Below, piece by piece: positions 1,360 to 55,990 of a stretch of 64,000 nt of DNA. The DNA is taken from contig JBAWXN010000003.1 of the NCBI GenBank assembly GCA_037144045.1, positions 7,696 through 71,695 of the forward strand, in the 5' to 3' direction. The position numbers and the translations under genes are program-made. Under the pieces are notes generated by a model, which was not told the DNA's origin, did not search any database, and saw nothing but the letters and a program-made list of their open reading frames with translations. Origin of the DNA: a bacterium. Its GTDB lineage: Bacteria; Patescibacteriota; Minisyncoccia; Phycocordibacterales; UBA1006. Each line of letters starts with the position of its first letter. Position 1 is the first letter of the stretch.

Positions 1360-2301
1360 TTAAATTGGAGTAGGAATTTTGAACCATGGATTTGCTACAT
1401 AGTCTTTCACAATAAAGTGTTCAGGTCTGAAAGCGAGTATGTCTTCAGTCGGAGCATCTTCAGTGAAGTGTATTTCAGGAAATACATGAGGAAATTCGGT
1501 ATCGGTATCGACAAGGCGTTGTGCATGTGTGAGCTGCATTTCATAAATATGTGCGTCTTCAATGTAGTACACTAGCTCATCAAAAATAATACCGGTTACC
1601 CGTTCAAACATGAGTCCCATACAAAAGTATTGAATCAGGTTGAATTGAAGTCCAACAGGTGAATCAGCAGAACGCTGATTATGGGTTAGTTTAAAAGTAT
1701 TATTTCCGGTGTTGATATGTACCTGAATCCAACCATGACATGGGGCAACAACTACGGCACGTGGATTTTCTGGGTCACCAGAAGCAGTATAGTAGGGAAT
1801 CCACGGTACCGCCTTTATGGTCCGCAATATCGGTCGTTCCTTCATAAGGCGCACCATATTGAGAATTTGGTGAAAGGTGCCACCGTCAGGTTTAGGGAAT
1901 GCGGCCCATGCCGGTCCATAGGATCCTGGTCCTAAATCACCTGCCGGTAATCCGAATACGCTACATTTTTCCTCGGTTACCCATTTCTCCCAAAAACTTT
2001 TTGGGCAACCATATTGTTCTAGTTGTTCAAGGGTACGCGCTCCGTTCATAAATGCGATATTCTCTCCGATAGCGCCTTTGATAAGATTGTACTTTTCAAG
2101 GTCGCGTGCAGCTATTGCAGGTAATCCGTTGCTTCGTTTAAAGCGCATAGGGTATCCAATAAGTCGTTTAGATGGATCCCCATGAATGGGGGTGTGGTCT
2201 TCTCCAGAAGATAGAATATTTTGAATAAGGTTTCTGTACTGAGTATCAACAGTACGCTGTTCTTTTGGTAGATAACCAAAGTTTTTTGCAGTGCTCGTCA
2301 T
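1360..2301 (-). CDS. thyA: thymidylate synthase (ThyA family, dUMP-dependent C5-methylase fold)
   Basis: 313 aa. Has the catalytic APCHGW (ThyA Cys-His), NQRSAD (E. coli YQRSCD) and PVGLQFNLIQYFCMG (E. coli LGLPFNIASYALL, Asn retained so dUMP-type), plus WEKW...DLGPGSYG (E. coli WDEW...DLGPVYG). A dUMP hydroxymethylase cannot be excluded from sequence alone. Confidence 0.75.
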   Translation of the reverse strand: MTSTAKNFGYLPKEQRTVDTQYRNLIQNILSSGEDHTPIHGDPSKRLIGYPMRFKRSNGLPAIAARDLEKYNLIKGAIGENIAFMNGARTLEQLEQYGCPKSFWEKWVTEEKCSVFGLPAGDLGPGSYGPAWAAFPKPDGGTFHQILNMVRLMKERPILRTIKAVPWIPYYTASGDPENPRAVVVAPCHGWIQVHINTGNNTFKLTHNQRSADSPVGLQFNLIQYFCMGLMFERVTGIIFDELVYYIEDAHIYEMQLTHAQRLVDTDTEFPHVFPEIHFTEDAPTEDILAFRPEHFIVKDYVANPWFKIPTPI

Positions 2302-2303
2302 GA

Positions 2304-2768
2304 TTACTTGTTTAACCGGTTTTTAAATTGCCCCACATAGAATTCTAAGGTGGTGCTTTTTTGTGGTGAGAGAATATGTCCATGAAGTCTTGTGCATGTA
2401 GTTCCAGAAATTTTTGGATTTCCGAAGCGCATACAGAAGGCGCCGCCTTTTATGGCGTGTGTTTTAATAGTCCATGACTGTGCTTCGAAAAGAGCAGTAA
2501 CTTCTTTGTTGTTCATTTGAGTAATTGTCTTTATAGGACGTTTACAAATGACAACAAAGTGGTCTTTACTATTAACGAGGGGCCAAAGGTTTTTAATAAC
2601 ATACCATTCATTATTTTCATAAATAATCTTGTTATAAACCCCTTTGCCATCATGAATCTTTACAATATTTTCCGGGCTAAATGGGTCTTCACCCCGATCA
2701 AGGAAATCCTTAATAATATTTTGCTGGTCTTTGTTGCGTGCATTGTCTGGTGTTGTAGTTTTTTTCAC
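2304..2768 (-). CDS. HIT-like superfamily protein (degenerate histidine motif)
   Basis: 154 aa. NEWYVIKNLWPLVNSKDHFVVICKRP ... TRLHGHIL resembles HIT/GalT-like nucleotide hydrolase/transferase cores, but only two His are in the triad position. Only 3 nt upstream of thyA, so likely co-transcribed. Confidence 0.35.
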   Translation of the reverse strand: MKKTTTPDNARNKDQQNIIKDFLDRGEDPFSPENIVKIHDGKGVYNKIIYENNEWYVIKNLWPLVNSKDHFVVICKRPIKTITQMNNKEVTALFEAQSWTIKTHAIKGGAFCMRFGNPKISGTTCTRLHGHILSPQKSTTLEFYVGQFKNRLNK

Positions 2769-2874: not shown

Positions 2875-4551
2875 ATGTCTATTACTCAAACCCTTAATCA
2901 GGCAATAACTATTGCGCTTGCAAACCTTGGAATTTCAGGGGTTGTTTTTACGTTAGAACACCCAACTGAATTGATACATGGGGACTTTGCGTGTAACGCA
3001 GCACTGGTTGCCGCGAAACAAGTAGGTAAAAATCCGCGCACGTTGGCCGATGATATTAAAATTGAACTAGAAAAACTTGAAATTCCTGAAATTGATTCGG
3101 TGGTAATTGCAGGTCCAGGATTTATTAATATCACCTTATCCAAAAAATTTTTCGTTAATTTGAATCACCAGATTGGTGAAACAGGGAATACTTTTGGTAA
3201 AACAACTATTCATGCTGGTAAAAAAGTACTTGTAGAACATTCGTCACCAAATCTTTTTAAACCGTTTCATATTGGACACATGATGAACAATGCGATTGGG
3301 GAATCGTTGGTGCGATTGATGCAATTTTCAGGAGCTGAAGTTGCAACGATGTCATTTCCGTCAGATATTTCACTGGGTGTAGCGAAAGCAATTTTTATCT
3401 TCCTTGAGAAAAAACCAGAAATTACAATCGAGTCTCTAGGTGATGCATATGTAGAGGGAACTAAAAGATATGAAGAGGATGAATCAGTTCATGCTCGTGT
3501 AAAAGAAATCGCAGATAATTTATACGGTAATGTAGATTCACCAGAATTAAGTGTATTCACTACATGCAAACACTTCAATATTAACTACTTTGAAAGTATT
3601 GTAGGAAAGCTTGGTTCACATTTTGATTCTTATATTTACGAAAGTGAAGCGGGGATAGTAGGTAAAGATCTTATTCTAAAAAACACTCCAGGTATTTTCA
3701 CCGAAAGTCAGGGTGCGATTGTGTATATTCCCGATGAATCTAAAAAAGGGCTCAATACCGCGGTGTTTATTAACAGTCAGGGAAATCCAACGTACGAAGC
3801 AAAAGATATTGGACTCCTTGATTTGAAGTTCGAACGAGTACACCCCGACTTGTCGTTATTTGTAACGGACCATGAACAAATTCCACACTTTAAAATCGTG
3901 TTGGATGCCGCAGAAAAAATTAATAAAAACTGGGTAGACAAATCAGTGCACGTACCCCATGGGCGTATGACGTTTAAAGGACAGAAAATGTCATCACGAT
4001 TAGGTGGAGTACCACTTGCCGTTGAAATGATTGAAGATGTGGCAATAGAAGCGAAGGCTCGCGCAAAAGATCCAGAACAGGTTAAACTTGCAGAATCAAT
4101 TGCGATTGCAGCAATCAAATTTGCAATTTTGCGTGCCAAGCCAGGACAGAATATTAATTTTGATCCGGAAACGTCGCTTTCATTTGAAGGTGATTCAGGG
4201 CCTTATTTGCAATATACGCATGCACGTATTTCAAGTGTTATTGAAAAAGCAGGTGAACAACAACTGATGCCTCAGTATTCAGAAGGCGAATCAATAGTAG
4301 ATGTTGAACGCATGGTTGCACAGTTTGAAACCGTGGTCGCTAACGCTATTAGTGAATACGCTCCACAATACGTCGTTACTTACTTACTGGAACTCGCTCG
4401 ATCGTTTAATTCGTTTTATGCAAGCAATAAAATTATTGATAGTGAACACGTAGAGCAATCACAGCATCGCCTTGCGATTGCGCAGAATGTGCAACAAGTA
4501 ATTAAGAATGGGTTACACCTCCTTGCTATTACGGCTCCGAATCGTATGTAA
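2875..4551 (+). CDS. argS: arginyl-tRNA synthetase
   Basis: 558 aa. Class I HIGH motif (PFHIGHMMN) and C-terminal MSSRLGG (KMSKS-like). Overall ArgRS architecture including the DALR anticodon-binding C-terminal region. Extended -10 TGCTAATGT lies 7 nt upstream of the ATG. Confidence 0.9.
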   Translation: MSITQTLNQAITIALANLGISGVVFTLEHPTELIHGDFACNAALVAAKQVGKNPRTLADDIKIELEKLEIPEIDSVVIAGPGFINITLSKKFFVNLNHQIGETGNTFGKTTIHAGKKVLVEHSSPNLFKPFHIGHMMNNAIGESLVRLMQFSGAEVATMSFPSDISLGVAKAIFIFLEKKPEITIESLGDAYVEGTKRYEEDESVHARVKEIADNLYGNVDSPELSVFTTCKHFNINYFESIVGKLGSHFDSYIYESEAGIVGKDLILKNTPGIFTESQGAIVYIPDESKKGLNTAVFINSQGNPTYEAKDIGLLDLKFERVHPDLSLFVTDHEQIPHFKIVLDAAEKINKNWVDKSVHVPHGRMTFKGQKMSSRLGGVPLAVEMIEDVAIEAKARAKDPEQVKLAESIAIAAIKFAILRAKPGQNINFDPETSLSFEGDSGPYLQYTHARISSVIEKAGEQQLMPQYSEGESIVDVERMVAQFETVVANAISEYAPQYVVTYLLELARSFNSFYASNKIIDSEHVEQSQHRLAIAQNVQQVIKNGLHLLAITAPNRM

Positions 4552-4886: not shown

Positions 4887-5939
4887 ATGAGAATGAATTT
4901 TGAAAAGAATCTCAAAGGGTATGGTGAACACATTACTAAAGCCCATAAAGACCTTTCGTCAGAAGGCCGTACTCTTGCTGAACAAGAAAAAACAAAGCTC
5001 GTTGAACAAGCTGCCCAGACATCATTTACCGACATCGATGCTGAACTTGAAATCTATAAAATTCAAAAACAAAAGCAAGAACGCCTCAACAAGTTTAAAA
5101 AATTCCTTGAAAAGACACGTGGTGATAATGGTTCGTTTGTGCGACCTGAGGTCAAGAAGGGGGTGCCGGTGGTTTCAAAAACTGAACAAGGATATTACGT
5201 GGTTATGCCCGATGGGAAAAAATCATCAATAACATTAGGTGACATGATGACGGATCATGAGTGGGATGTGGAATATGCATTTGATCCATCGGTAGATGTT
5301 CATACTATTCGTGGGTATTACCTGGAACAATTGAAAAGTGATTTACGAGAAAAACTCGATCAGCAAATTATTACGTCAGAAACCCATTTTACGCGCGGTG
5401 ATTCATTCAAGCAAAATGCCTATAAAGAAATTGGAAAAAGAATGGAACAGGGTAGTGAGCAGCAAGGAGTTATTGCAGAAAAAATGGTAAAGAATTTCTT
5501 GAAAAAACTCACTATTGATTTCGGAACGGATTTTGAAATTGTTGAAGCGAACGCGTTCCAAGATGTAGAACAAAAGGTGGATTTTATTATTCACCGTAAA
5601 AGCCATGATCGTGCACGTGGGGCACAAGTAGTAGAGTCTGGTGAATTGGCGGACATTGGTATTCAATTTACGATTAATGATAGTAAGACTGATGTTAAAG
5701 AAAAACAAATTGAAAAATCAAAATCCCGAGCGAAAAATTTTCAGGATATTGTATTGGTAACATTGCCGGCGCATGATGCAAGTATGTTGTATAAAAAGTG
5801 GTCGCATCAGAAAACTCCTGGAGGTCCTGAGAAATTATGGGAATCATCTACGAAAGAAGCAATATTCCGAGGGGTGATGAACAAAGTACTGACTGCAGAG
5901 GAAATTGATTCGTTTTGTGAAAAACATTTTAGTAACTAA
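4887..5939 (+). CDS. hypothetical protein
   Basis: 350-aa ORF, Lys/Glu-rich. No recognisable motif. Confidence 0.5.
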   Translation: MRMNFEKNLKGYGEHITKAHKDLSSEGRTLAEQEKTKLVEQAAQTSFTDIDAELEIYKIQKQKQERLNKFKKFLEKTRGDNGSFVRPEVKKGVPVVSKTEQGYYVVMPDGKKSSITLGDMMTDHEWDVEYAFDPSVDVHTIRGYYLEQLKSDLREKLDQQIITSETHFTRGDSFKQNAYKEIGKRMEQGSEQQGVIAEKMVKNFLKKLTIDFGTDFEIVEANAFQDVEQKVDFIIHRKSHDRARGAQVVESGELADIGIQFTINDSKTDVKEKQIEKSKSRAKNFQDIVLVTLPAHDASMLYKKWSHQKTPGGPEKLWESSTKEAIFRGVMNKVLTAEEIDSFCEKHFSN

Positions 5940-6107
5940 ATAATATTATTTTATGGAAGGAATTGGAAAGAAAATAAAAAACGGATTGATGTATACTGCA
6001 TTTCTTGCGGGTATTGTCTTGGAAAAGAAGGTTTAGAAAACTTAAATAGTTCAACTAAACTTGATAGTAAGAAAAATCAGACTACGGTTAACGTACCAGT
6101 CAGGGAT

Positions 6108-6881
6108 GTGATCACCAATGATGTTGTAAGTAATGTGTCAGCAGAGTCGACAGAAAATGTGTATCTTTTTAAAGATGACGATGGGACACTTATTAATCCT
6201 AATAAGCAAACAAAATCAGAACCTGAAAAGCTCTGGTTGTTAAATTTTCTTAAATCAGAAACATATAAAAACAAAGCTCACGCAGAAGGATTAACGGATA
6301 AAGATATTCAAGAAAGAATTAAACGCCTAGAAAATACGCCTATTTTTAAAAAGAATGTAGAACATTTTGCAAGCGGGTCAGACGGATATACAACATTATC
6401 TGATTATAATGGTAAACCAATGCCTACTATCAGTATCGCTACAGCAAACCCTGAAAAAGTTCCTGCTACGATTATTCATGAAGGGGAACACGCGGCAACT
6501 CATGGAAATAGTAGATTAAGTAAACGTGCTAAGGCGTTATACGAGGAATCATTTAATAAAGATAATATATATTCGAATAATAAAAAATACGAATCCTACT
6601 TACGTGACTACACGGAGCGAGATGCACGGAAAAGAGAACTTGAGTTTGAAGCCGAAAAACTCGGAATTATAAAAGCTGGGCAAAAAATAACAGTAGATGA
6701 TTATCAAAAAATAATGAAGGCATATGAAGAGGGTAAGTTTGATTATGGTGCAAATCAATTTATTGAAACAACTAAACCGGAATATTTTATTAAAGTAATG
6801 AACGAAATTGCAGATAATCAAGAAATTCAGAATCATAACGACGCGCCGCCCTATAATTTACCGACAGAACAACAAGGATAA
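6108..6881 (+). CDS. hypothetical protein with HExxH (HEGEH) putative metallopeptidase motif
   Basis: 257 aa with GTG start. IIHEGEHAATHG contains HExxH. No signal peptide. Confidence 0.45.
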   Translation: MITNDVVSNVSAESTENVYLFKDDDGTLINPNKQTKSEPEKLWLLNFLKSETYKNKAHAEGLTDKDIQERIKRLENTPIFKKNVEHFASGSDGYTTLSDYNGKPMPTISIATANPEKVPATIIHEGEHAATHGNSRLSKRAKALYEESFNKDNIYSNNKKYESYLRDYTERDARKRELEFEAEKLGIIKAGQKITVDDYQKIMKAYEEGKFDYGANQFIETTKPEYFIKVMNEIADNQEIQNHNDAPPYNLPTEQQG

Positions 6882-6924
6882 GGCTCTTTACATGGAGGGC
6901 TTTTTTCGTTATAGTGATTTTGTG

Positions 6925-7140
6925 AGGCAATGATCCGACTAATCACCGGGGAGCACTTGAAAGAAATTCCTTTAAGGAAAAGTAGATTCAGGCGGGTAAG
7001 CCCGATATAGCGGTAATAAGGGCCGGCAAAAATGCGCAGCATTTTTGCCGGCCAAACCAAGGTGGTACCACGATTTCTAGATACCAAAAGAAACTCGTCC
7101 TTGAAGCATGACTTGTGTCGTGTTTCGCGGACGAGTTTTT
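6925..7140 (+). promoter_or_regulatory. T-box riboswitch leader (Ile-specific) with intrinsic terminator, upstream of ileS
   Basis: T-box sequence AACCAAGGUGGUACCACGA at 7054-7072 (consensus AAnnnGGGUGGnACCGCG). Antiterminator can form as A1 CAAGG/CCUUG, 7-nt bulge UGGUACC (UGGU pairs with tRNA ACCA, discriminator A as in tRNA-Ile), A2 ACGA/UCGU. The competing terminator is ACUCGUCC...GGACGAGU + UUUUU (7092-7140). A strong Stem III hairpin GGCCGGCAAAAAUGC-GCAGC-AUUUUUGCCGGCC lies immediately 5'. Candidate specifier AUC-A at 6942-6945. Confidence 0.65.
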
Positions 7141-7159
7141 ATTTACTTATTTATTTACT

Positions 7160-10100
7160 ATGAACCCAAACCCAAACAAATCACTCAACGCACTCCAAGA
7201 AGAAGCACTGCTTCAATTTTGGCGTGACAACAATATTTTCCAAAAAACACTCGAGAAAAAACTAGAGCCTGGTGCTGATCAAGGTGAATATACGTTCTTC
7301 GAAGGTCCACCAACGGCAAATGGACGTCCAGGTATTCACCATGTCGCTGCGCGGTCGTTCAAAGATATTATTCCGCGGTATAAAACCATGCGTGGTTTTC
7401 GTGTGAATCGAAAAGCGGGTTGGGATACTCATGGGTTGCCGGTAGAGCTTCAAGTAGAAAAACAATTGGGACTCAAGTCTAAAAAAGAAATTGAAAACTA
7501 TGGAGTAGAACTATTCAATCAAAAGTGTCGCGAAAGTGTTTGGGAATATAAAGACGAATGGGAAAAGATTACCGAACGTATGGGATATTGGTTAGATATG
7601 GAACATCCATACGTAACCTATGATAATGGGTACATCGAAGCATTGTGGGCAACCGTAAAGCGCGCAAATGAACGGGGACATCTGTATAAGGATTTTAAAA
7701 TCCTTCCGTGGTGTACACGATGTGGAACGGCGCTTTCGTCACATGAACTCAATCAACCCGGTGCATACAAAGAAGTGAAAGACCTTTCCGTGTTTGCAAA
7801 ATTTCCTATTGTTGGCTTTGAAAAAGCATATTTCCTTGCATGGACTACAACTCCTTGGACGCTTCCAGGAAATGTAGCGCTTGCGGTAGGTGCTGATATC
7901 GACTATGTAGAAGCCAAAGTAGGTGGTGAAATTTTAGTACTCGCCAAAGAACTGACAAAAATACTCCCTGAAGGATTTGAAATTATTGCAGAACATAAAG
8001 GATCTGAAATGGTGGGGATGTATTACGAACCCCTGTTTCCATTTATGAAAAACTTGGTAAAAGATCAAGACGAAAAAATGGAAAAAGCGTATCAGGTATA
8101 TGCAGCTGATTTTGTTACTACTACTGACGGAACAGGAATTGTGCACACGGCAGTGATGTACGGAGCAGATGACTTTGAACTAGGAACTAATATCGGATTG
8201 CCAAAGTTCCACTTAGTGAACGAAGAAGGAAAATTCATTGATGGTTGTGATACTGATACCCTTAAATTATTAGGTCGCTACGTAAAAGAATCAGATGAGA
8301 AAGGCAAACCAACCCTTGCAGTAGATATTATCGATAGTCTCACCGCTCGAGGATTGTTGTTCAAGAAAGAAAATTACGTACACAGCTATCCGCATTGCTG
8401 GCGATGTGATACCCCGCTTATTTATTACGCGCGAGGATCATGGTATTTTGCAATGTCGAAATTACGACAGCAATTATTGGATGCTAACCAAAATATTCAT
8501 TGGGAGCCAGAACATATCAAGGAAGGTCGTTTCGGTGAATGGCTCGATGGTATTAAGGACTGGGCTATTTCACGTGATCGCTATTGGGGAACCCCTATTC
8601 CTGTATGGCAAACAGAAGACGGTCTTGAAAAAGTGGTCATTGGAGGAATTGAAGACTTGAAAACCTATACAAAAAAATCAGGTAATAATTTCTATGCGAT
8701 TCGTCACGGGCAAGCGCATAGTAATACCACGAATACCTGGGATTGCGGACGTGATCCAGAAAATCACCTTACCGACCTAGGGCATGAACAAGTACTTGCT
8801 GCAGCACAAGCGCTTAAAGAAAAAAAGGTGGATGTCATCATCGCATCACCATTTTTAAGAACTCAAGAAACTGCAGCGATAATTGCAAAGGAATTAGGAG
8901 TTAATGAAGCAGATATTGTTACTGATGAACGCCTTGCAGAATGGAACGTAGGAACAGAATTTGACCGCAAGTCACTCGATTATTTCTTCGATGTACGTAA
9001 TAAATCACATGATCGCTATTCGTTTGAATCCCATGAAGGGGAATCATTTGCAAATGTTATTAAACGAGTAGGGGAATGTGTCTATGAAACTGATGCGAAA
9101 TACGCAGGTAAAACAGTGTTATTTGTAGCGCATGGGTCATCGATCCGGGCCCTTGAAATTGTTGCAGAAGGGTTCACGTTTGAAAAAATGTTGAAACGAG
9201 AAGCGAAGCATTTGAATTATAAAAACGCCGAATTCCAAAAGATTGCATTTAGTCGATTGCCCCATAATCAAAACTATGAACTTGATTTCCATAAGCCGTA
9301 TATTGATCAAGTAGAACTTGAATTAAATGGTAAAAAAATCATGCGAACTCCGGAAGTAATGGATGTGTGGTTTGATTCAGGTGCGATGCCGTATGCGCAG
9401 CACCATGTCCTTGGTGAACCGATGGATTTCTCACCGACACCGGCAGATTATATTGCAGAAGGGGTAGATCAAACACGAGGATGGTTTTATACGATGCATG
9501 CGATTGCGAACATGATGAATGACATTCCGACGAATAACTACAAAAATGTTATTTGTATGGGGTTACTCCTTGATGCGAATGGACAAAAAATGTCTAAATC
9601 AAAGGGGAACGTGGTTGCCCCATGGGAGGTATTTGATAAGTATGGTGCAGACGTCGTACGGTTTTGGTTCTATTCAGTAAACCAGCCTGGTGAAGCAAAG
9701 AACTTTGATGAAAAATCATTAGATGAAGTAAACAAGAAAGTATTTAATATTTTGCGAAACGTGGTTTCGTTTTACGAGATATACAAGCCAGAAGAATTTC
9801 CTTGGGTAAATCCATTTGATAGTACTAATGTGCTTGATCAATGGATGCTTGCGAAACTTCAAAACTTATCACAAGTATTGGTTACGAATCTTGATACCTA
9901 CAAAGTTATGGAATCCGCGCGAGCCATCCGTGATTTTGTTACAGAATTATCTACGTGGTATGTGCGTCGCAGTCGTGATCGATTTAAATCACCTGATGAG
10001 GCTGATAAAAACTTTGCATTAGTTACTCTACAGTTTGTACTTGATAACCTTGCGCGATACATGGCACCATTTACACCATTTATTGCAGAAGAAATCTATC

Positions 10101-51684: not shown

Positions 51685-52589
51685 CCCCTCGTCTCACAAA
51701 TTTTCTACCTTCTTGGTCTGATCAAATGTGGGAGACAGATCATTGTCAACTTCATGCGTTGCCCGAAGCATTTATTGAGGTATTTTTTCTCTATGAAAAT
51801 TTAGAAAAAATATTTACGTTATCCCGCTTCGGAGCACGATTGAGAAATAATACAGGCGAATTTTGCACAAGTGCAGAATTCAAGTATTTTTTACCAAGCA
51901 AATAAAAGAACAGTTCTAAAAAAAATTTAGAACAACCCGCCTCATCGGCGGGTGAAAAAGTCTCCGCCGGAAAGGCGGAGCAAAATAAAAAGTCCTTTCT
52001 ATAATGGTTATAGAAAGGCGAACACACAAAGATGTGTTTACTTGTGATTTTTAGATTTCCTAATAGGAGTCTAAGGGCGTAGTAGTGGATGCCTTGGTTC
52101 ATGGAAGCGATGAAGGACGCGACAGCCTGCGATAAGGTTCGGGGAGCTGGCAATAAGCTTTGATCCGGACATTTCCGAATGAGGAAACTCATTGGGGGTT
52201 ATACCCCAATATCTGACAGCTGTCAGATGCTAACCTAGGGAAGTGAAACATCTCAGTACCTAGAGGAATAGAAAACAATAGTTATTTCCTGAGTAGCGGC
52301 GAGCGAAACGGAAGGAGCCCAAACCAAGTTGATCGCGTAGTGTTTGATAGATTTATTTATCGAAACCTACGCGATACATTTGGGGTTATAAGACGAGAAC
52401 GTCATTTAGTTGAGAAGAGTTACAAATTCATGTGTTAGATTAAGTATCTGGGAAGATACGGCATAGAGGGTGATACCCCCTTGATCGAAAACGCTATGAA
52501 CTCTTTTGTTCACGCTCTTGAGTACTTCGAGACACGAATAGCTCGGAGGAATTTGCCGGAACTAACCGGTAAGGCTAAATATTCCATGA

Positions 52590-52635
<46 letters not shown>

Positions 52636-53213
52636 GGAGAGGGGAGTGAAATAGATCTGAAACCCTACGCCTACAAGGAGTCGGAGCGGCAATTTATTGT
52701 CCGTCACGGCGTGCCTATTGAAGAATGAGCCAACGAGTTATAGCATGCGGCAGGCTAAGCGCTTTAAATGCGTGGAGCCACAGCGAAAGCGAGTCTGAAT
52801 AGGGCGAAATTTATGTCGTATGCTATAGACCCGAAGCCAGGTGATCTACCCATGGACAGGTTGAAGTTCCGCGAAAGCGGAATGGAGGACCGAACCAATA
52901 AGCCGTGCAATACTTTTGGATGATCTGTGGGTTGGAGTGAAAAGCTAATCGAACCTGGTAATAGCTGGTTCTCTCCGAAACAGCTTTTGGGCTGGCGTCG
53001 AGCGTTCCCTTTGGGGGTAGAGCACTGGATGGTCTTGACAGGGAGCAATCTCGCAAGACCTACCAAACTCCGAATACCAAAGGCCACAGCTCGGCAGTTA
53101 GACAGTGGGGGCGAAGCTCCACGAGTCAAAACGGAAACAGCCGTAGATCTCAAATTAAGGTCCCTAAATTCATGTTAAGTACACTTAAGGAGGTTAGATT
53201 TCTTCGACAATGA

Positions 53214-53245
<32 letters not shown>

Positions 53246-54038
53246 GAAAGCGTAACAGCTCACTCATCAAGAGATCTAGCGCCGCAAATAATCGGGGTTA
53301 AACATGATACCGAAGTTGAGGATGCATTATTCCCTCGGGAGTAATGCGTGGTAGGAGAGTATTCGCATCTGCGATGAAGCCGAAGGCGTGAGCCACGGTG
53401 GAGCGTTGCGAAGCAAGAATGTTGGCACAAGTAACCACAAGACACGTGAAATCCGTGTCCGCCGAAAAGTCAAGGTTTCCTATTCAATGTCAATCAGAGT
53501 AGGGTTAGTCGGGCCTAAGGTAATGGCGATAGCCGGAACCGATGGACACATGGTTAATATTCCATGACTTCTCATAGGGCGATGGAGAGACGGAGAAAAC
53601 AAGCATATGCGCATTATTGGATTTGCGTTCGTGCATCGAGGTTCGTAGCTTAGGAAAATCCGGGCTACATAAGAACCGTGGTGAGCGAAAATTTTTGGCT
53701 TCGGCCTGAGAAATATATGTGAAGAGTCTTCCGAGAAAATCTTCTAGCTTAACCTATGAGAAACCGTACCGCAAACCGACACAGGTGACTAGCTCGAGTA
53801 GAGTAAGGCGAACGAGTGAGGGATCCTCAAGGAACTCGGCAAAAAAGCGGCCGTAACTTCGGAATAAGGCCTGCCTCTTGCAAAAGAGGCCGCAGCGAAA
53901 GTCTCCCTGGCGACTGTTTATCAAAAACACAGCTCCCTGCTAAATCGTAAGATGATGTATAGGGGGTGACACCTGACCAATGCCAGAAGGTTAAATAATG
54001 GCGGTGCGATTATATCAAGCTGACTGTTATAAGCCCTG

Positions 54039-54081
<43 letters not shown>

Positions 54082-54741
54082 ACCTTGTCGGGTAAGTTCC
54101 GACGCGCACGAATGGTGTAACGACTGGGGAACTGTCTCGAGGATTTGCTCGGTGAAAATACAATACCGGTGAAGATGCCGGTTACCTGCAGTTAGACGAA
54201 AAGACCCCGGAAGCTTTACTATAGCTTTACATTGGGCATATTTTTTTATTGCGTAGCATAGGTGGGAGAGGTTATGTACACGATCTTGGTTGTGTAATAC
54301 TCAACAGTGAAATACCACTCTGTAACGAGATATGTCCTAACTTGGTCGAAAAAACGATCAAAGACAGTGTATGGTGGGTAGTTTGTTTGGGGCGAATCCC
54401 TCCTAAAGAGTAACGGAGGGGCCTACAAAGGTTATCTAGGCGTGAATGGAAACCATGCCGATAGTGTAATGGCACAAGATAGCTTGACTGCAAGTCGTAC
54501 ATGACGAGCAGGTGCGAAAGCAGAGCATAGTGAACCGACTTTAGCCTTTAGACGGCGAAGAAGATCAACGGATAAAAGCTACTCCGGGGATAACAGGCTA
54601 GTTTCGCCCGAGCGTCCACAGCGACGGCGAAGTTCGGCACCTCGATGTCGGCTCATCATATCCTGGGGCTGGAGAAGGTCCCAAGGGTTTGGCTGTTCGC
54701 CAATTAAAATGATACGCGAGCTGGGTTCAGACCGTTAAGTG

Positions 54742-55463
54742 TTTTTCATGATAACTCCTGTTGTCGCGAAGAGCATTTTACAGTCTGAATCCACGAGGAC
54801 ACAACTGTTAAAACCAAAAGGTACACGCCTTTTCAAAACGTGATGTTATAAGTTTTTTCGTTTAATAAAAAGTCTTTAAACTGGTGTATAGAAATATGCC
54901 AAGAATAAAGCAAAAAGATAGAAATTAAATCTATTATTATTTGTGAATTTCATAGAGGAAAATTTCCTCATGTTCTTTAAGACCTCACCGAGGCATTGCG
55001 AGAGTAATCTCAGGGTGACCGAGTATATATGTACGCAAATAACACTTCGGTGTTACTAGGTCAAAATGTCGGGTCTCAGGTCTGCGTACGCACACCTGAA
55101 AACTTAAATTGGTCGTGTGGCCGAGTGGCTAGGCACAGGTCTGCAAAACCTGGTACGAAGGTTCGAATCCTTCTGTGACCTCGAGTAGTAAGCATTATTT
55201 AAATGCTTACCTCTTCTATGAAATTCATAAATATACAATAGGTTTAAAAGTAGTATCAACCAATAATTGCGGCGGTCTCATATGGTGACATATGAAGACA
55301 TGTTCAACTTATATCGGTGAAATCCCACTCGTAACAAACGAAGGACGACCCCGAGGGAATTCCAAGAGTAATCAAGGATGCCCGTAGAGACTAAATGTTG
55401 AAAATCTCATTGAGATTAAGTTATAGTCCATTGCTTACAGTAATGTAAGAAAACAAGCGCAAG
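54742..55463 (+). mobile_element. group I intron (ORF-less) in 23S rRNA at the position homologous to E. coli ~2593, carrying a nested tRNA-like gene
   Basis: rRNA colinearity breaks after ...GCTGGGTTCAGACCGTTAAGTG and resumes at AGACAGGTTGGTCTCCTATCTACTGCAGGCG. Core elements in the 3' third are Q-like AATTGCGGCGG (55265), R-like GTAGAGACTAAATG (55384) and S-like AAGTTATAGTCC (55418), giving P7 GACTA/TAGTC. No ORF longer than 60 aa inside. Boundaries are +/- 5 nt. Confidence 0.7.
55111..55181 (+). tRNA. tRNA-Cys (anticodon GCA) embedded in the 23S group I intron, no encoded CCA
   Basis: Hand-folded cloverleaf: 7-bp acceptor stem GGTCGTG/TGTGACC (3 G-U), U8, A14, G18G19, 3-bp D stem, anticodon stem CAGGT/ACCTG with loop CT-GCA-AA, 4-nt variable loop, T arm GAAGG-TTCGAAT-CCTTC. 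Discriminator U73 is the tRNA-Cys identity element. Confidence 0.7.
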
Positions 55464-55880
55464 ACAGGTTGGTCTCCTATCTACTGCAGGCGTCGATTTT
55501 TGAGAAGATTTGTCCCTAGTACGAGAGGACCGGGATGAACTGACCTCTGGTCTACCAGCTGTACTGCCAAGTGCACCGCTGGGTAGCTATGTCGGGAATG
55601 GATAACCTCTGAAAGCATCTAAGAGGGAAGCCAGCTTCAAGATAAGAAATCATAGGACCGTGAAAGATGATCACGTTGATAGGCTTTAGATGGAAGCACA
55701 GTAATGTGTTGAGTCGAGAAGTACTAATTGTCCATATCCTATTAGGAAATCTGAAAAGCACCATTTGCAAAAATGAATGCTTGGATGAATTTCCGCAAGG
55801 AAATCACCAAATGTTAAACACATTTTTGTGTGAAGTGTATAAAATACTAGCTTGTATTATTTCAAAAAATTAAGTTCTCA

Positions 55881-55990
55881 GTTCTGGTGATTTGGTACGG
55901 TGGTCACACCTCTTCCCATTTCGAACAGAGTCGTTAAGCACCAGTACACCAATGGTACTCCTTCGGGGGAAGAGTAGGTGTCGCCAGAAC
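55881..55990 (+). rRNA. rrf: 5S ribosomal RNA
   Basis: GTTCTGGTGATTTGGTACGGTGGTCACACCTCTTCCCATTTCGAACAGAGTCGTTAAGC...AGTAGGTGTCGCCAGAAC. Helix I closes GTTCTGG/CCAGAAC and is extended by precursor stem AAGTTCTCAG.../...CGAGAACTT. Confidence 0.85.

Follow-up and report, generated by a model that had tools for sequence, protein, structure and literature searches.

Locus and borders of the insertion

The DNA analysed here is a stretch of 64,000 nucleotides (nt), called the window below, from a bacterium of the Patescibacteriota (Minisyncoccia; Phycocordibacterales; UBA1006; GenBank assembly GCA_037144045.1, contig JBAWXN010000003.1, positions 7,696 to 71,695 of the forward strand). Its 23S ribosomal RNA (rRNA) gene is interrupted by an insertion that is almost certainly a bona fide group I intron without an endonuclease gene, and this intron carries, in the orientation of the rRNA, a complete gene for a cysteine transfer RNA (tRNA-Cys) with the anticodon GCA (Table 1). 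The position of the insertion was determined by global alignment of the joined exons to Escherichia coli rrlH, in which joined-exon position 2675 (T54735) maps to E. coli 2593. The site after U2593 is the I-CreI-type site of large-subunit (LSU) rRNA, L2593.

Borders were set by comparison with four related loci whose 23S genes carry an intron at this position (L002, L003, L005 and L165). Exon 1 ends in ...GACCGT and exon 2 begins with CGCAAGACAGG, and the intron sequences of the relatives diverge directly after the former and directly before the latter; because they differ right up to both exon ends, the intron was assigned to 54736-55457. An earlier interpretation made from the letters of the window alone (the sequence-only reading) had described an insert of about 720 nt at LSU position 2593. 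The site agrees with the E. coli alignment, but the borders given there, 54742-55463, had to be moved 6 nt to the left, the reading having been misled by an intron that starts with TAAGTG and an exon 2 that starts with CGCAAG. The same reading had found no open reading frame (ORF) of note in the insert, and this was borne out: no homing-endonuclease ORF was found in the intron, in which the longest ORF on either strand has 51 amino acids (aa).

The 3' end of exon 2 was inferred from locus L001, in which the match to model positions 2673-2925 stops 130 nt before the 5S gene. The window genome is low in GC and Paceibacteria-like: homologues of its RodA bear that name, and its gene order, L10-L12-...-23S-5S-ORF260-RodA-PAP2-SecD-SecF, is common to many such contigs. 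The strain also occurs in the sequencing run SRR12676975. No 16S gene was found in the 64-kb window, where the 23S-5S pair is thus unlinked to 16S. The window 23S gene has a single intron, whereas L003 and L004 have two insertions, the second of which lies upstream and encodes a 168-aa LAGLIDADG_1 protein.

Table 1. Positions of the intron, its parts and its surroundings in the window, and of corresponding or comparable elements at other loci
Locus	Feature	Position	Strand	Details
Window	23S rRNA exon 1	52061-54735	+	RF02541 match starts at 52061; last base T54735 = E. coli U2593
Window	Group I intron at L2593	54736-55457	+	722 nt, no ORF, ends in omega-G 55457
Window	Conserved L1 element	54783-54792	+	GUCUGAAUCC (GTCTGAATCC in DNA), complementary to exon 1 -13 to -4
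Window	Left arm of cargo stem	54929-54961	+	AUCUAUUAUUAUUUGUGAAUUUCAUAGAGGAA
Window	Cargo insert at stem tip	54962-55209	+	248 nt: 149-nt leader, tRNA-Cys(GCA), trailer hairpin
Window	tRNA-Cys(GCA)	55111-55181	+	Discriminator U73 at 55181; CCA not encoded
Window	Hairpin just 3' of tRNA	55188-55210	+	GUAAGCAUU-AUUUA-AAUGCUUAC; terminator-like match, weak T-run
Window	Right arm of cargo stem	55210-55244	+	CCUCUUCUAUGAAAUUCAUAAAUAUACAAUAGGUU; conserved in L002, L005, L165
Window	Internal guide sequence	55267-55278	+	UUGCG (P10) then GCGGUCU (P1), directly 5' of P2 hairpin
Window	Ribozyme core	55279-55457	+	Rfam alignment, RNAalifold; helix coordinates read by eye from the sequence
Window	Core helix P2	55279-55294
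Window	Core helix P3	55301-55308 with 55397-55402
Window	Core helices P4-P6	55314-55383
Window	Core helix P7	55389-55393 with 55424-55428		GACUA with UAGUC
Window	Core helix P8	55403-55417
Window	Core helix P9	55434-55449
Window	Predicted ligated exon junction			GACCGU/CGCAAGACAG; longer form ...GGGUUCAGACCGU/CGCAAGACAGGUUGG
Window	23S rRNA exon 2	55458-55753	+	Starts CGCAAGACAGG; 3' end approximate
Window	5S rRNA	55883-55989	+	RF00001, 64.4 bits; same direction as 23S
L005	Stem tip			104 nt with tRNA-Asp(GUC), 64.3 bits, G73; RodA 95% identical to window
L002	Stem tip	8056-8245		190 nt, tRNA-free; RodA 88% identical to window
L165/L166	Stem tip			Empty, closed by GUAGC-UUCG-GCUA (13 nt); RodA 83% identical to window
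L003	Second 23S insertion	6647-7153		Upstream, LAGLIDADG_1 ORF; RodA 81% identical to window
L004	Second 23S insertion	6643-7149		Upstream, LAGLIDADG_1 ORF; RodA 81% identical to window
L110 (Paceibacterota)	tRNA-Arg(UCU)	2644-2719	-	Encoded CCA, 70.3 bits
L016 (Saccharibacteria)	tRNA, anticodon UAG	1882-1960	-	79 nt, encoded CCA, 58.1 bits
L028	Helix-45 tRNA insert	4892-5049
L058	Helix-45 tRNA insert	6987-7060	-
L075	Helix-45 tRNA insert	2969-3135	-
L112	Helix-45 tRNA insert	1767-1978
L118	Helix-45 tRNA insert	5808-5997

Guide sequence and ribozyme core

In the internal guide sequence, GCGGUCU pairs with the last seven bases of exon 1 (AGACCGU; P1), with the canonical G-U pair at the splice site, and UUGCG pairs with the first five bases of exon 2 (CGCAA; P10). 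Together P1 and P10 reach 11 of 11 pairs, against a mean best score of 8.2 of 11 in shuffled introns. Guides and terminal bases were compared across 120 non-identical L2593 introns drawn from a genome scan, a metagenome scan and the relatives. P10 was found to covary, exon 2 and guide reading CGTGA/TCACG in 36 introns, CGCAA/TTGCG in 7, CGTAA/TTACG in 4 and CGCGA/TCGCG in 1, and the intron ends in G in 119 of the 120 (G55457 in the window). A short GGCGGTT near the 5' end of the L002 intron was also considered as the guide and was dropped, the UUGCG/GCGGUC beside P2 being the element that covaries with exon 2.

The core was modelled with RNAalifold on 12 members of the family, which gave compensatory changes in 25 of 46 predicted pairs and predicted helices with changes on both sides for P2, P3, P4, P5, P6, P8 and P9. 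The pseudoknot pairing of P7 also varies in concert (GACUA/UAGUC in 51 introns, GACUG/CAGUC in 17 and GACGC/GCGUC in one). With these changes in P2-P9 and P7, the covariation of P1 and P10 and the terminal G, the proposal that the insert is a group I intron was supported; a splicing assay aside, we regard its identity as settled. The R-like and S-like elements and the GACTA/TAGTC pairing of P7 had been identified correctly in the sequence-only reading. Its Q-like AATTGCGGCGG is not a strand of P4; that segment is the internal guide sequence, comprising the P10 strand and the P1 strand.

The Rfam group I model RF00028 matches 55216-55450 with 44.6 bits (E 6e-10 in a search of 901 nt), below its gathering score of 50. 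The same intron scores 54.8 bits in L003, above gathering, 46.7 in L002 and 45.3 in L005. A low score of this kind, together with long stems that could be substrates of RNase III, is what might be expected of an intervening sequence that is either retained or excised by RNase III, so that the 23S rRNA would keep the insert or be fragmented, as with the Simkania 23S intron or the intervening sequences of helix 45. Intervening sequences of the RNase III type occur in helix 9, 25 or 45, are excised without ligation and have no ribozyme core. The window insert differs in its site, U2593, and in its complete group I core, whose features covary and whose P1/P10 guide follows the exon 2 variant CGCAA, and we consider an intervening sequence highly improbable. 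Because position 2593 lies in the peptidyl-transferase region, the intron must be spliced out; this position and the exon-matched guide are the grounds on which we infer splicing from pre-23S rRNA.

The exon 2 sequence CGCAAG (55458-55463) recurs in L002, L003, L005, L165, L129 and L143, where E. coli (2594-2599) and most other loci have CGUGAG. The two bases that differ lie next to the peptidyl-transferase centre, where conservation is high, and the P10 strand of the guide, UUGCG, fits the altered sequence.

The tRNA-Cys gene

The canonical tRNA-Cys that the sequence-only reading had placed in the 5' peripheral part of the insert, at 55111-55181 on the rRNA strand, was recovered by both programs used. 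RF00005 matches it with 58.5 bits (E 4.7e-10 over the whole 64-kb window) against a gathering score of 29, and ARAGORN calls it tRNA-Cys (gca), the sole tRNA in the window. In the alignment to the tRNA model, it has U73, the anticodon loop CUGCAAA, a 4-nt variable loop, a G13-A22 mismatch and the T loop UUCGAAU, and in its D and anticodon arms it agrees with ordinary tRNA-Cys genes. The GCA anticodon and U73 are major identity elements for cysteinyl-tRNA synthetase, and both are present in the intronic tRNA. On balance, we incline slightly to the view that the tRNA is expressed and used.

The lack of CCA makes it unlikely that the cargo was copied from a mature tRNA. A scan restricted to sigma-70-like promoters found none on the plus strand upstream of the tRNA within the intron. 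Comparison of the cargo with all fetched loci by blastn returned nothing past generic tRNA similarity. A phage origin was considered and is unsupported: phage genomes match the cargo by blastn solely through annotated tRNA-Cys genes (81-84% identity), and a 22-nt anticodon-arm pattern run against viral contigs met unrelated tRNA-Cys genes (at best 57/72 identical). The core motif of the clade, CCGTAGAGACTAAATGTTGA, is absent from viral contigs.

The cargo stem and its variable tip

The guide lies 531 nt from the 5' splice site in the window, the longest such distance among the 120 introns (median 140 nt), and because of this separation P1 closes a large L1 domain. Within it, the two arms of the cargo stem pair over about 33 base pairs (bp) in the minimum-energy fold; a two-strand fold of the arms gives -49 kcal/mol, and the association of the two intron halves on either side of the cargo gains -18.5 kcal/mol in a two-strand fold. 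An A-U to G-C compensatory change distinguishes the stem of the window and L005 from that of L002 and L165, as read directly from the sequences. The 149-nt leader gave no Rfam match (E up to 10), no degenerate sense-strand tRNA at ARAGORN thresholds of 70-90% and no relative among the fetched loci. The trailer hairpin has a shorter counterpart in L005, GGUAAC-AAAA-GUUACC.

Closer to the 5' splice site, the conserved L1 element is complementary to GGGUUCAGAC in exon 1 (GGGTTCAGAC in DNA) and is present in about 40 of the 120 fetched L2593 loci. It shows some covariation, exon UUUAGAC occurring with GUCUAAAUCC (in DNA, TTTAGAC with GTCTAAATCC), and 4 nt of the exon strand of P1 fall within its pairing. 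It could form an alternative or extended exon-binding helix.

The tip of the cargo stem varies among close relatives, which have it empty, filled with a tRNA-free insert, or carrying tRNA-Asp or tRNA-Cys (Table 1). In the 190-nt insert of L002, neither Rfam (E up to 10) nor ARAGORN at thresholds relaxed to 70-90% found anything on the sense strand; the insert may derive from a cargo that has decayed, or be an unrecognised RNA. The window and L005 introns are 94-98% identical outside the cargo (223/227 and 234/248 positions), and their cargos share short similar stretches at the ends (CCUCA... on the left, CGA.GUAA plus the hairpin on the right). Two different tRNA genes at the same site of a near-identical intron mean that at least one of the two cargos is recent; the window strain must have another source of tRNA-Asp, and the L005 strain another source of tRNA-Cys. 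This exchange between sister strains argues that the tRNA was recently acquired; it makes the intronic gene less likely to be the sole tRNA-Cys gene, and a long-standing essential role of the intronic tRNA unlikely.

Since relatives' contigs often break at 23S/5S (L001, L006, L007, L164, L167, L168 and L170, which were of no use for comparing cargo), the region is evidently hard to assemble, and it might be asked whether the cargo was joined into the intron by metagenomic mis-assembly. Intron sequence flanks the cargo on both sides within one hairpin, so two precise false joins would be needed; moreover, a tRNA also occupies this site in the independent assembly L005 (ENA ERZ19028352, scaffold_3901), and P6 and helix 45 hold tRNAs in unrelated metagenome-assembled genomes (MAGs; see below). 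We regard such an artefact as barely credible.

Nested tRNAs in other 23S rRNA genes

One genome per species was scanned for 23S genes with a base other than C after U2593. It gave at least 120 matches, and the matches listed include at least 102 real insertions of 214-3487 nt, mostly from Patescibacteria, with some from Actinomycetota, Omnitrophota and Armatimonadota. Two of these 102 contain a tRNA, both in MAGs (L110 and L016; Table 1), and in both the tRNA tops a 21-30-bp extension of P6. The P6 loop is also the place that holds I-CreI in Chlamydomonas. In L016 the anticodon UAG is joined to a class I body: the variable arm is short, and the anticodon stem is closed by a C-A mismatch, which makes the identity of this tRNA ambiguous.

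A second nesting site, at E. coli 1163-1186 (helix 45), was found by mapping the window 23S exons onto all fetched loci. One or two sense-strand tRNAs (39-68 bits) occur there in 5 of the 57 loci that span the site, all of them Patescibacteria, in a sample in which genes with an additional L2593 insertion are over-represented. Their identities are Ala, Tyr, Val plus Gly, and Ala plus Val, some being ambiguous; the tRNA-Tyr lies in JACKGF010000001.1, a complete genome of 997 kb. The inserts imply a 23S rRNA that would be fragmented there, with release of the tRNA. The window 23S gene has no insertion in helix 45, and no published description of tRNAs nested in helix 45 was found. The occurrence of tRNAs both in L2593 introns and in helix 45 suggests a habit at the level of the phylum, not a one-off.

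Two alternatives to a used tRNA gene can be weighed with these loci. In the first, the tRNA is a redundant passenger, a recent duplicate of a stand-alone tRNA-Cys that has no selective value here and will decay, and the stem tip is a neutral landing site. The variation of the cargo among close relatives fits this, as do the 190 nt of L002 if they are decayed cargo, the lack of a tRNA in most related introns and the three G-U pairs in the acceptor stem of the window tRNA. Neutral insertion should, however, give both orientations, and the nested tRNAs lie on the rRNA sense strand in all ten of ten loci (chance about 0.001, counted per locus); all of them score 39-70 bits, well over the tRNA gathering score, and the cargo always tops a long stem, across three different host helices. 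A redundant passenger is therefore, in our judgement, a possible though not a likely explanation.

In the second, the cloverleaf serves as a recognition module for RNase P and RNase Z and not as a decoder, and the cuts made at it, in the intron or in a helix-45 intervening sequence, speed decay of the intron or maturation of the rRNA, in the manner of mitochondrial tRNA punctuation or of the tRNA-like ends of some long RNAs. Such a role would suit the tRNAs in helix 45, a classical site of excised intervening sequences, and the interchange of Cys and Asp cargo; some nested tRNAs also have odd anticodon loops (given as '???' by ARAGORN), and that of L016 combines its class I body with UAG. A processing handle would have no need of the full identity sets that are kept (GCA with U73 for Cys, GUC with G73 for Asp, an encoded CCA in L110). 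Relatives presumably splice without any tRNA, and RNase III is retained in Patescibacteria (PMC12641178). This role appears quite improbable.

Two further observations concern the other L2593 insertions. The P6 insert of L016, of about 550 nt, contains CCACGTCGTGAGACAGTG, in which 13 consecutive bases (CGTCGTGAGACAG) equal the uninterrupted 23S target around 2593. This far exceeds chance in 1 kb. The stretch may have been captured from an allele that lacks the intron, or it may mimic the target. Insertions of about 380-840 nt after U2593 occur in Acidimicrobiia MAGs (L023, L031, L034, L039, L040, L045, L079, L087 and L099), and also in MAGs of Omnitrophota (L038, L073 and L092) and Armatimonadota (L095 and L102). 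These insertions from outside the Patescibacteria have different 5' ends, AGATCACACTGC..., AAATTACATTGC... and TAGCCCAAA....

Proposed expression and release of the tRNA

The account that we favour, with some reserve, is that of a spliced, endonuclease-less intron with tRNA-Cys as a co-transcribed passenger, to be freed by RNase P and RNase Z. The tip of the L1-domain hairpin tolerates insertions, and the tRNA, without a promoter of its own, would be transcribed as part of the pre-rRNA. Co-transcription is the simplest assumption because no promoter-like site precedes the tRNA on the plus strand and its orientation is always that of the rRNA. Bacterial tRNAs without an encoded CCA are usually matured by RNase P, RNase Z and then CCA addition. 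Here, RNase P would cut the 5' end and RNase Z the 3' end, and the CCA-adding enzyme would complete the molecule, the last two steps being expected because no CCA is encoded. The tRNA might be released from the excised intron or from the precursor. In the latter case the cuts would split the intron, since they would fall downstream of the 5' splice site and upstream of the guide; the halves could stay together through the stem of some 33 bp that flanks the cargo, given the energy gained by their pairing, and splicing could then proceed. The same design, cargo atop a long stem, recurs in P6 and in helix 45. In function, the gene would amount to a spacer tRNA of an rRNA operon relocated to an intragenic spacer. 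Transcription, processing, aminoacylation and splicing after tRNA excision are all predicted from the arrangement of the locus.

Several observations weigh against this account. The RF00028 score of the window copy is under the gathering threshold, and the account assigns no role to the 149-nt leader. Among the matches listed, 100 of the 102 other L2593 introns have no tRNA, so the intron needs none, and of the intron family to which the window copy belongs, a metagenome scan by the core motif found 36 members, all of them tRNA-free. The exchange of Cys and Asp in near-identical introns marks the cargo as young and perhaps dispensable, and a working gene that was copied recently would look intact even without being used. 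In the tRNA itself, the inner end of the acceptor stem consists of three consecutive wobble pairs (G5-U68, U6-G67 and G7-U66), and U73 is followed by CGAG in place of an encoded CCA. Finally, if RNase P and RNase Z cut the precursor, the ribozyme would lose its connection to the 5' splice site, which could be harmful.

A broader reading that joins these observations is more speculative, and we think it unlikely to hold as a whole. Long peripheral stems in the excised parts of Patescibacteria 23S rRNA (L1 and P6 of L2593 introns, and helix 45) would serve as docking sites for exchangeable tRNA genes, whose tRNAs would be made from pre-rRNA. Excision by RNase P and RNase Z would nick the intron, and the two base-paired halves would splice, a natural 'trans' splicing of a group I intron induced by processing. 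If this were true, the nested copy would be the sole gene for its tRNA in some reduced genomes, where the intron could then not be lost, and a moving intron would carry a tRNA between strains.

So far as is known, the introns of bacterial rRNA genes have either no cargo or a homing-endonuclease gene. Swappable intron cargo in the form of a host tRNA would tie tRNA supply to rRNA transcription and intron processing, and would offer a possible reason for an endonuclease-less intron to persist in genomes under strong reduction. It would also pose a mechanistic puzzle, as RNase P and RNase Z should cut the ribozyme from its 5' splice site, and the architecture of the L1 domain suggests how this might be tolerated. 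For annotation, tRNAs that 'overlap' rRNA genes may be thrown out as artefacts, and ORF-less rRNA insertions are currently filed as function-unknown.

Comparison with known systems

In full-text literature searches, no account turned up of a tRNA gene lying within an intron or intervening sequence of bacterial rRNA. The sequence-only reading, too, had known of no tRNA gene in a group I intron of a bacterial rRNA gene. The nearest relatives by position are other L2593 introns. Cr.LSU of the Chlamydomonas reinhardtii chloroplast is an L2593 group I intron with I-CreI, which is encoded in P6. Cyanobacterial 23S introns (PMC1995217) are further examples, and insertions at 23S position 2593 in the candidate phyla radiation (CPR)/Patescibacteria are reported to encode LAGLIDADG_1 proteins (PMC11270868). 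The latter study surveyed 968 23S insertions; where an insertion has neither an intron match nor an ORF, it is classified there as uncharacterized or of unknown function. The word tRNA occurs nowhere in the study. The window intron shares with these introns the site after U2593 and the type of ribozyme, and with the CPR cases the phylum; it differs in having no homing-endonuclease ORF and in carrying a tRNA in L1, where I-CreI lies in P6.

By function, the closest parallel is with the tRNA genes that bacterial rRNA operons carry in spacer or distal positions, such as tRNA-Ile and tRNA-Ala between 16S and 23S (PMC5179076). As with these, the intronic tRNA would be transcribed from the rRNA promoter within pre-rRNA and released by RNase P and 3' processing, with tRNA output coupled to that of rRNA. 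Unlike them, it occupies a 'spacer' in the interior of the 23S gene, and the ribozyme around it must still bring its two ends together.

The group I intron in mitochondrial nad5 of sea anemones and corals encloses other mitochondrial genes. Both introns house host genes in a peripheral loop of a group I ribozyme; the nad5 case concerns an organelle, mostly protein genes and the mRNA of a host gene, and the window a bacterium, a tRNA and an rRNA. In Patescibacteria, group I introns also occur inside tRNA-Asn and tRNA-Asp (PMC13011429), as they do in the tRNA-Leu(UAA) of cyanobacteria. The two players and the phylum are the same there, with the topology inverted: in the window, an intact tRNA lies inside the intron.

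In Tetrahymena mitochondria, a tRNA separates the two pieces of the LSU rRNA. Intervening sequences excised by RNase III are found in helix 45 of bacterial 23S rRNA (PMC11270868, PMC2801512). Both resemble the helix-45 tRNA inserts described above, in that a tRNA stands in the LSU unit where the rRNA tolerates a break. Neither involves ligation, whereas the window element is, on the evidence of its guide and core, a true intron at a site that requires it.

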